A stretch of 32,000 nt of DNA from Microcystis aeruginosa NIES-2549 (lineage in GTDB: Bacteria; Cyanobacteriota; Cyanobacteriia; Cyanobacteriales; Microcystaceae), in the NCBI RefSeq assembly GCF_000981785.2, contig NZ_CP011304.1:2220001-2252000 (forward strand), read 5' to 3'. The notes below the pieces were generated by a model. That model was given only the letters and a program-made list of their open reading frames with translations, was not told the origin of the DNA and made no database searches. Numbering within the stretch: position 1 is the stretch's first letter; each line of letters starts with the position of its first letter. Positions 22,317 through 24,186 of this stretch are shown here, one piece after another. A program made the position numbers and the translations under genes.

Positions 22317-23219
22317 TTATCCTTGTAATTTTAGTTTTTCGTAACGTTTAAAAATATCGTTAGTAATTTTTATAGCAGCTTCACGGTGACTGGCTAAACA
22401 CAAAGTATATAAAGCGGCATTCTTAGAATTTTTCATGATAACTGGGTTGCTAACGTAGGGAAAAAGTGTTTTTAATCTTTCTGTATATAAATCTGCTAAT
22501 CTATCGGCAGAGATTTTGTCACGACTGGCATTAGGTTCTTGATTATCAAACAAATTTAATTGAATATTTTGTGGTGGTTGGTAAATTTGCTCTAGCCAAT
22601 CTACGTTCCCCATTACTTTATTCAACTGTTCTACTACCTCTGTTTTTGGTTCTTTATCTTTTAGCAAAAGCCGAGTAACGCCCATCACCGAAAAGTTAAT
22701 AAAAATATCGCAAGCTTTAGTTTCTGCTAGTTGAGTGATAGTTTGCCAATCTACTTGTAATCCATAGGGATCTAAAAAAACAAAGGCTCGTTGAGTAAAT
22801 TTTTTCTTGAGCAATAAATTAGGCAGTATATCGTTACATAAAATCTCATTACAGTTACCGCGACGGACATGAATTTCACGGTCAGGAAACTCCTCACATA
22901 AACGTTCTAAACGTTCAGTGCGTTGACGGGAAGTATCAATAAACCAGTAACCATCAAATGGTGGTTCTGTTCTCAAAGCACGCAGGGGAGAACCATCAAT
23001 ATATCGTTGTTCATCTTCCTTCGCTGTTGGTCTCACGGAACCAGCAAAAGCGTCTATATAGTAATAAGCTTTAAGCCAAGGCTTTCCTGTGGGATTCTTG
23101 GGAGTTTTCTGATTGTTCATGATCACAGAATAAGCATTGAGATACTGAGCGAGTAAATCTAACTTATCCTCAGACCATTTACCAATAATATCTTCGCCTT
23201 CTTGGCCTCGTTGACTCAT
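22317..23219 (-). CDS. tcmP: Three-Cys-motif partner protein TcmP (Rossmann/methyltransferase-like motifs)
   Basis: 300 aa with an ATG start. WSEDKLDLLAQYLNAYSVIM, YYIDAFAGS and AFVFLDPYG match what I recall of the TcmP family (TIGR04474). It lies 14 nt downstream of the three-Cys DUF5131 gene, its defining genomic partner. Confidence 0.75.
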   Translation of the reverse strand: MSQRGQEGEDIIGKWSEDKLDLLAQYLNAYSVIMNNQKTPKNPTGKPWLKAYYYIDAFAGSVRPTAKEDEQRYIDGSPLRALRTEPPFDGYWFIDTSRQRTERLERLCEEFPDREIHVRRGNCNEILCNDILPNLLLKKKFTQRAFVFLDPYGLQVDWQTITQLAETKACDIFINFSVMGVTRLLLKDKEPKTEVVEQLNKVMGNVDWLEQIYQPPQNIQLNLFDNQEPNASRDKISADRLADLYTERLKTLFPYVSNPVIMKNSKNAALYTLCLASHREAAIKITNDIFKRYEKLKLQG

Positions 23220-23233
23220 ATCGATAACTTTGT

Positions 23234-24049
23234 TTAGGTCAATGTTAATAAATTATCTTGTTGTTTATTTTTTGAGAGTTTTTTTAGGGAGGAACCTGCT
23301 CTGATTGTCCATTTAGCATTGTGTTCGTTCCAAGCAGCAGGCATTTCATCCCAAATACGCTCATCAAGCATTCTACCACCAGCTTTGGAATAGTTACCAC
23401 CCCACTGCTTAAAGAAAAAAGCAACTTTAGATTCTCTGGTTTGAGCCAAAATTTCCCTAACCCAATCTGGCTCTATGGGACGATGTTGATAGCCTGATTC
23501 ACCGCCAACAATAACCCAATCAATCAGCGATAAATCCAGATTTAGTGGTCCTAAAAGAGGTTCACAGGAAAGAAAACGTACTTTGGCTGGTACTGTTTTT
23601 AAAGCCTCAATTCTATGGGTATATTGCTGACTTTCTACAGAGACACCCATCCAGATATTTTCCGACCATTCCAGTTTATCTGCTAAAGTTGCTAGTTTTT
23701 GAGGGCGCTTAGTCAAAATTTGATAAATATGCCAAGGAGTGTCTCGCATCACCGCAAAGATTTCCTGTAAATAGCCAAAGTCTAAATCTTCATGAAAAAG
23801 ATCACTCATCGAATTGACGAAAATTCGACTCGGTGTGCGCCATTTTTTCGGCTGTTCTAGTCTTTCTCGATGAATAGTAAAATTAAAACCTGTGGGAAAA
23901 CTTCCAGGAAAACGCATTGTTATTGCTTCTGCATAGCAATGACGACACCCCGGACTCACCTTTGTACAACCAGTGGTGGGATTCCAAGTTTTGTCCGTCC
24001 ATTCAATACCAGTTTTACTACTTGACATTTTTTTACCAGATACTTCCAT
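23234..24049 (-). CDS. Phage Gp37/Gp68 family (DUF5131) three-Cys-motif protein
   Basis: The ORF runs to 24085 (TTG). Likely starts are ATG 24049 (MEVSGKK) or ATG 24028 ([10 protein letters not shown]). The family signature is present: [29 protein letters not shown] (C-x6-C-x2-C), [39 protein letters not shown] and FFFKQWGG. Confidence 0.85.
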   Translation of the reverse strand: [271 protein letters not shown]

Positions 24050-24186
24050 AAGAGGGTGAACTTTTAACAAAGTATTATAGTACAAAATATCTAAGTAGGA
24101 TCAAAGGCTGACAAAAATTAATGCTACTGCCTGATCTCTCCCGATCTCCCTCAGAGGCTATAGTAACTATAATCACCCCTTTAGAC

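Follow-up and report, generated by a model that had tools for sequence, protein, structure and literature searches.

The protein families DUF5131 (phage Gp37/Gp68 family, PF07505) and TcmP (three-Cys-motif partner protein, TIGR04474) are both catalogued, and neither has a functional assignment. The two-gene cassette which they form is listed in PADLOC as the defence candidate PDC-M41; together with a sister candidate, PDC-M30, it stems from a guilt-by-embedding screen for genes nested in BREX, DISARM and type I restriction-modification (RM) loci (10.1101/2024.01.29.577857). PDC-M41 is a prediction, one of the 145 candidates of those authors, and is given in their supplement as FAM_02405>>FAM_00989, i.e. 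the same two-family cassette (10.1101/2024.01.29.577857). A tcmP gene adjoins the Hna defence gene in Sinorhizobium meliloti (PMC12445080), and RadicalSAM.org places DUF5131 in Megacluster-5-2 of the radical S-adenosylmethionine (SAM) enzymes, where spore photoproduct lyase is its neighbour at 5-3 (PMC9477430). Here we describe a copy of this pair in Microcystis aeruginosa NIES-2549, found in a stretch of 32,000 nucleotides (contig NZ_CP011304.1, positions 2,220,001 to 2,252,000; the whole stretch is called the window). The pair is read, with a probability of roughly 0.45, as a cooperative SAM-dependent DNA-modification module.

Family identity and architecture of the two proteins

The upstream product shows a full-length match to PF07505 (1-243; 313.5 bits against a cutoff of 28.9, E=1.2e-93), and the downstream product covers model positions 1-262 of 263 of TIGR04474 (216.2 bits against a cutoff of 53, E=7e-64). 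The PADLOC models agree, with PDC-M41A matching TcmP (E=9e-65) and PDC-M41B matching DUF5131 (E=1e-103) in adjacent genes, and with PDC-M30 matched more weakly by both window proteins. Adjacency to a three-Cys protein of PF07505, which is part of the definition of TIGR04474, is found here at a spacing of 14 nt. The two open reading frames (ORFs) are co-oriented on the minus strand, the DUF5131 gene preceding tcmP; in homologous pairs, the spacers measure 13-22 nt or are replaced by overlaps of 1-4 nt. The first-pass annotation, which was made from the letters of the window, had named both families and had described two tightly spaced, co-oriented genes, with a C-x6-C-x2-C triad in the upstream product and the segments YYIDAFAGS (aa 52-60) and FVFLDPYG (aa 146-153) in the downstream one. 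The hidden Markov models (HMMs), the ORF positions and the translations bear this out, and PDC-M41 and PDC-M30 show that the pair, although uncharacterised, had been recognised before. It is a catalogued "known unknown" and the window copy is an ordinary intact member, showing no difference from the two families as defined. Both families span many bacterial phyla and phages, with at least 8,000 close homologues of DUF5131 in the protein collection and 2,730 representative clusters (at 50% identity) of TcmP at E<=1e-3.

The three cysteines of DUF5131 (C21, C28 and C31) are invariant in all 80 homologues compared (50-99% identity), as had been anticipated from the window alone, and the fourth cysteine, C155, is not conserved. 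Further near-invariant blocks are LTKR, GVSvE, EPLLG, GGESG and FFFKQWGG. In the AlphaFold2 (AF2) model, with a predicted local distance difference test score (pLDDT) of 83, strands and helices alternate along the chain. Foldseek relates this model to TIM barrels and to radical SAM enzymes (MiaB, SuiB, NifB), the matches being weak (E~1e-2, template modelling (TM) score <=0.44); the best-covering one is spore photoproduct lyase (TM 0.43-0.44, probability 0.96, 15% identity). At the sequence level, DUF5131 resembles the NCBIfam family TIGR04471, "radical SAM mobile pair protein A" (82 bits, E=3e-23), the similarity spanning 204 of the 220 positions of that model. The curated listing, taken together with the presence of exactly three conserved cysteines, makes radical SAM chemistry the best available reading of this protein.

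The conservation of TcmP was assessed in 132 diverse full-length representatives. D56 is present in all of them and F58 in 131, followed by a G60-x-G62 element (124 and 117 of 132, respectively), G76 (131/132), S77 (132/132) and an acidic residue at position 95 (132/132). In motif IV, D150 is invariant and P151 is found in 131 sequences, while position 152 is aromatic in 128 and G153 is kept in 110. An N-terminal helix carries four more conserved residues, W15, K19, Y26 and Y30 (125-129 of 132). The AF2 model (pLDDT 80) displays the class I methyltransferase fold, and 54 methyltransferases of the PDB are matched by Foldseek at E<=1e-3, led by TYW4, EgtD, Trm1 and RlmJ (E~1e-5); against viral structures, Foldseek returned generic methyltransferases only. 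The Rossmann fold, the conserved D56-A-F-A-G-x-G motif I and the acidic residue 95 are those of a class I methyltransferase.

Among characterised enzymes, the closest to TcmP is RlmJ. The TcmP family profile matches RlmJ structures (E=4e-5), and hhalign aligns TcmP with RlmJ homologues across motifs I-IV (96.7% probability, E=3.5e-10), so that TcmP is, by profile comparison, a remote homologue of this 23S rRNA m6A2030 methyltransferase. RlmJ (PF04378; PDB 4blv, 6qdx, 7p8q) and TcmP have a homologous Rossmann core and share Y-x-D-x-x-A-G-x-G, GSP-x-x-A, an acidic motif II and D-P-aromatic. At the same time, TcmP is not a member of the RlmJ family, since PF04378 is not matched in the Pfam search, the ~40-residue helical (rRNA-binding) insertion of RlmJ is missing, motif IV reads DP(Y/F)G where RlmJ has DPPY, and the N-termini cannot be aligned with confidence. 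Unlike RlmJ, TcmP has its own conserved N-terminal helix, described above, and a C-terminal region of ~120 residues, and it is paired, whereas RlmJ is a solitary housekeeping enzyme. The N-terminal catalytic residues of RlmJ are Y4/H6/K18; an equivalence of TcmP K19 with RlmJ K18 was considered and not established, the alignment in this part being forced and of zero confidence. The resemblance to RsmD-like enzymes proposed in the first-pass annotation takes the form of this remote homology, RlmJ being close to RsmD-like enzymes, and its expectation of a Rossmann methyltransferase fold with conserved FAG and DP(Y)G motifs is confirmed by the model and by the distant homologues.

Longer TcmPs (370-440 aa) are true members of TIGR04474. 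In several of them, the C-terminus is formed by a GMT-like winged-helix (wHTH) domain (PF22560, best E=3e-19), which argues for a nucleic-acid polymer as the substrate.

Two unusual TcmP proteins were met in the collection. One of 552 aa (P0140) has two stretches matching TIGR04474, suggesting a tandem duplication. The other, of 616 aa when its ORF is read from the first in-frame start (L027:8055-9905), would have an N-terminal extension of 300 residues with no family match.

Linkage of the two genes in genomes and viruses

Genomic loci were obtained by scanning one genome per species, with the DUF5131 alignment as the anchor. The scan gave 80 loci from more than ten phyla (cyanobacteria, Deinococcota, Chloroflexota, Actinomycetota, Acidobacteriota, Nitrospirota, Bacteroidota, Planctomycetota and others), and a TcmP-like gene is directly adjacent in 63 of them. 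Three arrangements are observed: tcmP downstream and co-oriented, as in the window; tcmP upstream and co-oriented, often with an overlap of 1-4 nt; and convergent genes. The adjacency is kept despite the shuffled order, which is strong evidence of a functional partnership, and the start/stop overlaps suggest co-translation and formation of a complex.

The linkage is asymmetric. The TcmP-anchored loci, which comprise cyanobacterial contigs and four viral contigs only, have DUF5131 next to tcmP in every case in which the flanking gene is readable (Crocosphaera, Chamaesiphon, metagenomic cyanobacteria and the four viral contigs). DUF5131 is found without TcmP at 17 of the 80 genomic loci and at 47 of the 79 IMG/VR viral loci (the remaining 32 are paired), as well as in six of six sampled GenBank phages, even under a sensitive HMM search for TcmP. 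In phage records, tblastn detected DUF5131 in 181 and TcmP in only 5; for Microcystis phages, the first phage search gave 5 DUF5131 matches, none of them at E<=1e-30. As TcmP was never seen alone and DUF5131 is often solo, DUF5131 would be the core and TcmP the accessory component. The solo proteins of the six sampled phages are 310-361 aa long, and the five scanned match the whole Pfam model, which points to insertions.

A conserved third component is ruled out by the 107 immediate neighbours, among which no family occurs more than twice. Likewise, no fixed alternative partner was found at the 17 unpaired genomic loci, with RNase H, KilA-N, GHKL ATPase and others as neighbours, and a relaxed TcmP HMM search at these loci found nothing.

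Of the 150 ORFs at a distance of up to two genes from solo DUF5131 in IMG/VR viral contigs, more encode DNA methyltransferases than members of any other family (four of the C5 type, one N6_N4 and one D12), and these are accompanied by two further TcmP-type winged-helix proteins, RusA, DnaB and ParB; the solo genes are located in replication/recombination modules. In Gordonia phage Bakery, a C5 methylase gene overlaps the DUF5131 gene, and methylases are located nearby in phages RcapNL and Nsp-JY10. DUF5131 therefore looks like a core enzyme which recurs beside methyltransferase-type proteins and DNA-metabolism modules. A separate observation comes from Crocosphaera subtropica ATCC 51142 (L001), where a 91-aa fragment of an N6_N4 DNA methyltransferase, possibly a remnant, lies directly upstream of the pair (6693-6968).

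In Gordonia phage BaxterFox, the pair is placed between the integrase and the immunity repressor. The tcmP gene shares the strand of the repressor and a 4-nt overlap with its end, a layout suggestive of co-transcription. Such positions in temperate actinophages often hold defence genes expressed in the lysogen. The DUF5131 gene of this phage (L091, KU963263.1, 4740-5753, plus strand) is unannotated in GenBank, where gp39-41 of the opposite strand are annotated over it. Elsewhere, defence-type neighbours of the pairs are scattered (TIR, Lamassu LmuB, a type II restriction endonuclease (REase) and dCTPase), and most neighbourhoods are of the housekeeping kind.

Proposed mode of action and its alternatives

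In the favoured reading, DUF5131 and TcmP would act together, probably as a complex, in the covalent modification of nucleic-acid bases, most probably those of DNA. DUF5131 would be the core catalyst: its three invariant cysteines would hold a [4Fe-4S] cluster, which would cleave SAM to the 5'-deoxyadenosyl radical within a partial barrel related to that of spore photoproduct lyase. TcmP would be the dependent partner, an RlmJ-like Rossmann protein binding SAM through motifs I-III, with the D-P-aromatic-G pocket holding a flipped-out base, which it may either methylate itself or present to DUF5131. The winged-helix domain would tether the long TcmP variants to DNA. Such a system would most likely serve to mark DNA epigenetically or to protect it when mobile elements and hosts are in conflict, either as anti-restriction or in a defence-linked manner. 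In a bolder version, the pair would install an undescribed, radical-made modification of a DNA base, with TcmP flipping the base towards a minimal radical SAM enzyme and the cassette travelling from genome to genome as a self-sufficient epigenetic, anti-restriction or defence unit; we regard this version as tentative and rather doubtful.

Several observations weigh against the favoured reading. For DUF5131, Pfam Radical_SAM (PF04055) gives no match at E<=0.01, the cysteine spacing is CX6CX2C and not the canonical CX3CX2C, the fold similarity is weak (Foldseek E~1e-2, TM 0.43), and sequence searches of solved structures found no relevant match. The likeness to radical SAM enzymes suggested in the first-pass annotation is borne out by the RadicalSAM.org subgroup and the similarity to TIGR04471, and the structural matches point weakly the same way. 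With respect to TcmP, its motif IV D-P-Y-G lacks one residue relative to the catalytic (D/N)PP(Y/F), the forced alignment mentioned above leaves the N-terminal catalytic region of RlmJ with no confident counterpart, and the closest characterised relative acts on rRNA, not on DNA. The methyltransferases near solo viral DUF5131 are chemically diverse, and their adjacency may stem from membership in one early-gene module and not from coupled chemistry. No restriction-type partner was found, which would leave a purely epigenetic mark with no obvious reader. No enrichment of defence genes beside the pair, which the first-pass annotation had proposed as a check, is detectable in a crude PADLOC comparison: 47 PADLOC families were counted among the neighbours of the 63 pairs and 34 among 107 control ORFs at least 6.5 kb away, and PADLOC-matching proteins make up ~10% in both sets, single-HMM matches being noisy. 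Full-text literature searches on both families and on the PDC names returned annotation tables only and no biochemistry, in keeping with the earlier remark that no biochemical function is known for either protein.

Other explanations were weighed on the same evidence. The nature of the TcmP relatives would be accounted for by a modification of RNA, in which an RlmJ-like TcmP would act on rRNA or tRNA and DUF5131 would add a radical step, as in RlmN/Cfr or TYW1: RlmJ, which methylates rRNA (m6A2030), is the one homologue of TcmP with a characterised activity, and the top Foldseek matches are the tRNA/rRNA enzymes TYW4, Trm1 and RlmJ. The rRNA-binding helical subdomain of RlmJ is, however, represented by a gap in the alignment with TcmP, the long TcmPs carry a winged-helix domain, the solo viral DUF5131 genes lie beside DNA methyltransferases and replication genes, and the patchy, strain-variable distribution on phages and prophages is unlike that of housekeeping RNA-modification genes, so we consider an RNA substrate unlikely. 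The lineage of DUF5131 leads in a different direction, to DNA repair, since its nearest radical SAM relatives, both by structure and in the sequence network, are the spore photoproduct lyases. DUF5131 could then reverse a lesion (e.g. ultraviolet damage) with TcmP as a helper which flips the lesion, an idea that would suit the hosts (sun-exposed cyanobacteria, soil actinobacteria and their phages) and the solo phage copies in replication/recombination modules with RusA and DnaB. The similarity to spore photoproduct lyase is nevertheless weak (TM 0.43, 15% identity), presence or absence between strains and embedding in RM loci would be unusual for repair genes, and the linkage to methyltransferase-type proteins is left unexplained; a repair function is thus very unlikely.

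The genomic surroundings speak to two further proposals. An anti-phage effector which does not mark its own DNA, producing, upon infection, a toxic or chain-terminating nucleotide (viperin-like) or damaging phage nucleic acid, with TcmP tailoring the product or sensing the phage, would explain the embedding in BREX, DISARM and RM loci on which the PADLOC candidacy is based, the location in the immunity region of temperate phage BaxterFox, and the defence neighbours (TIR, LmuB, REase, dCTPase, and Hna next to tcmP in S. meliloti; PMC12445080). It is at odds with the lack of defence enrichment relative to the distant control (in that crude test), with mostly housekeeping neighbourhoods and with the lack of a sensor, NTPase or effector domain; the winged helix and the base-flipping type of pocket fit a polymer better than a free nucleotide, and PDC-M41 is itself a predicted candidate. 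We hold this explanation to be quite improbable. An antagonistic, RM-like pair would have TcmP methylating and so protecting the host DNA and DUF5131 attacking unmarked DNA as an Fe-S or metal-dependent nuclease or another DNA-damaging enzyme. A self-contained two-gene cassette of variable order, including the convergent one, is typical of RM systems, the presence/absence pattern is like that of selfish elements, some copies are embedded in RM loci, and many acidic, His and Lys positions in the predicted barrel of DUF5131 are invariant. The supposedly toxic DUF5131 is, however, often solo and intact (17/80 genomes, 47/79 viral contigs) while TcmP was never seen alone; moreover, no nuclease family is matched and the short TcmP has no obvious target-recognition domain. 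There is little chance that this arrangement is the correct one.

The Microcystis locus and its comparison with known systems

The features of the locus are collected in Table 1. The DUF5131 gene most likely starts at ATG 24028 and not at TTG 24085, because the cyanobacterial homologues are 260-265 aa long and begin at this position with MSS.NTGIEW, because the PF07505 match opens at residue 24 of the long ORF, and because the 19 upstream codons diverge in a related strain in which the gene body is ~99% identical. The changes in these 19 codons are non-conservative, and one in-frame ATG is lost. The promoter-like element upstream of the gene constitutes weak evidence, as 10 such sites were found in the region by the consensus scan versus 6.5 +/- 2.6 expected. 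A scan of positions 21500-25600 with Rfam gave no RNA family, the 56-nt repeat matching no known RNA either.

Table 1. Positions of the cassette, its genes and repeats, and the adjacent operon in the window.
Feature	Position	Strand	Basis or remark
DUF5131 / phage Gp37-Gp68 family gene	23234..24028	-	264 aa plus stop, start ATG 24028
DUF5131 ORF, long version from first TTG	23234..24085	-	ORF call
In-frame upstream extension of the DUF5131 ORF (TTG start), probable non-coding 5' leader	24029..24085	-	
Intergenic spacer, 14 nt	23220..23233	-	sequence
tcmP, 300 aa, class I methyltransferase-fold partner	22317..23219	-	TIGR04474, PDC-M41A, Foldseek, RlmJ profile
tcmP motifs: motif I YIDAFAG; motif II FID; motif IV DPYG			
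Promoter-like TTGTCA-17-GATATT within the cassette, preceding the DUF5131 gene	24086..24114	-	consensus scan
Direct repeat copy 1, 56 nt, cassette boundary	24180..24235	.	
Direct repeat copy 2 (56 nt), on the downstream side of tcmP and close to it; 89% identity with copy 1	22222..22277	.	
1958-bp unit (one repeat and two genes), missing from precise empty alleles	22278..24235	.	
253-aa protein, overlaps the PIN_3 gene by 4 nt	24274..25035	+	
PIN_3 protein (PF13470, E=2e-22)	25032..25442	+	Pfam

In Microcystis, the two-gene unit is a strain-variable accessory insertion of roughly 2 kb, since occupied and empty alleles are found at the same flanks, and it behaves like a mobile element. The occupied allele is built of a repeat, 36 nt, the cassette, the second repeat and a tail (window and contigs L005, L010, L098, L101). 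In the precise empty allele (L092, L099), a single repeat joins the flanks and window position 24180 continues directly to 22277, which is exactly the product expected of recombination between the repeats. In a second empty type (L093, L094, L096, L102, L103, L104), the repeat and the 36 nt are followed by a 28-nt filler, and these six contigs lack window positions 22100-24143. The 56-nt repeat is present in the window in two copies only, with none expected by chance, and there is no recombinase within the cassette. The earlier proposal that the pair is inserted between core genes is therefore substantiated, other Microcystis strains keeping the same flanks in the absence of the cassette. Microcystis sp. 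T1-4 has a contig which is syntenic with the window and encodes a DUF5131 protein with 99% identity. Between Microcystis alleles, DUF5131 shows 9-10 amino-acid versus 23-24 synonymous changes, and TcmP 17-20 versus 17-22. Both genes are intact and under purifying selection, DUF5131 more clearly so. What the window carries is an intact copy of the DUF5131-TcmP module which selection maintains.

The repeat was also considered as a dispersed miniature inverted-repeat transposable element (MITE); this is ruled out, because a metagenome scan matched it in 13 contigs, all 13 of them from the same locus. On the plus strand, copy 1 contains a promoter-like TTGTTA-18-GATAAT upstream of the operon encoding the 253-aa and PIN_3 proteins, while the same element in copy 2 would point antisense into tcmP.

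The claim that the pair is compositionally foreign holds only weakly. The GC content of the cassette genes (0.37-0.40, and 0.28-0.30 at third codon positions, GC3) is about one standard deviation below that of the window genes (0.427 +/- 0.049 and 0.38 +/- 0.08, respectively), but it is no lower than in several other genes of the window. Two other regions, 5001-7000 and 28000-32000, have a GC content of 0.32-0.39, as low as the cassette or lower.

A PIN toxin module beside the pair had also been cited in its support. The PIN_3 neighbour is real, but empty alleles (L092, L096, L099, L102, L104) carry the operon as well, which makes it independent of the cassette, and it is absent from other DUF5131-TcmP loci; as a part of the system, it is ruled out. 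The 253-aa protein has no match in Pfam, NCBIfam and PHROGs and one marginal match in PADLOC (E=0.008). Should the operon encode a toxin and its antitoxin, the upstream protein would be of unusual size for such a partner, being so large.

On the other side of the cassette, between it and the pilT-like gene (window ~22100-22190), short tandem repeats are located, composed of GGGGAAGT units and CTCCTGTCTCGGAG-like units. The copy number of GGGGAAGT varies between strains, the window having 3 units and L099 having 8. The gene for the PilT-like ATPase (20710-21987) is adjoined by that of a 248-aa protein (19873-20619, minus strand) in which a KaiB domain (E=5e-24) is confined to the C-terminal residues 166-238, the long N-terminal part before it being without a Pfam match.

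The value of these results lies in the DUF5131-TcmP family rather than in the window copy. If the favoured reading is true, the pair would represent a new radical-SAM-dependent modification of nucleic acids and a new pairing of the methyltransferase fold with a radical enzyme, with a bearing on phage-host conflict, on the epigenomics of bloom-forming cyanobacteria and on the interpretation of methylome data. What this particular copy offers is a small system with natural strains which have the same flanks with or without the cassette, i.e. a ready-made comparison of modifications.

In respect to known systems, the window copy consists of the same two adjacent families as PDC-M41, but it lies between the pilT-like gene and the PIN operon, outside any BREX, DISARM or RM locus. 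With the radical SAM enzymes, and spore photoproduct lyase in particular, DUF5131 shares three cysteines on an N-terminal loop and, by its weak structural matches, possibly a partial beta/alpha barrel, differing from spore photoproduct lyase in its much smaller size (a core of ~240 aa) as well as in the cysteine spacing (CX6CX2C versus CX3CX2C), the missing PF04055 match and a TM score of 0.43. TIGR04471 is likewise a mobile, paired gene of the radical SAM type, but its partner is different, and the 82 bits scored by DUF5131 are far below the cutoff of 355 bits, so that DUF5131 is not a member. Type II RM cassettes are, like the DUF5131-TcmP pair, compact mobile two-gene units which include a methyltransferase-fold protein and occur in variable order, the convergent one among them. 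The pair differs from them in having no detectable nuclease family, and in that its non-methyltransferase component is the one often found solo, the reverse of the situation in RM systems.

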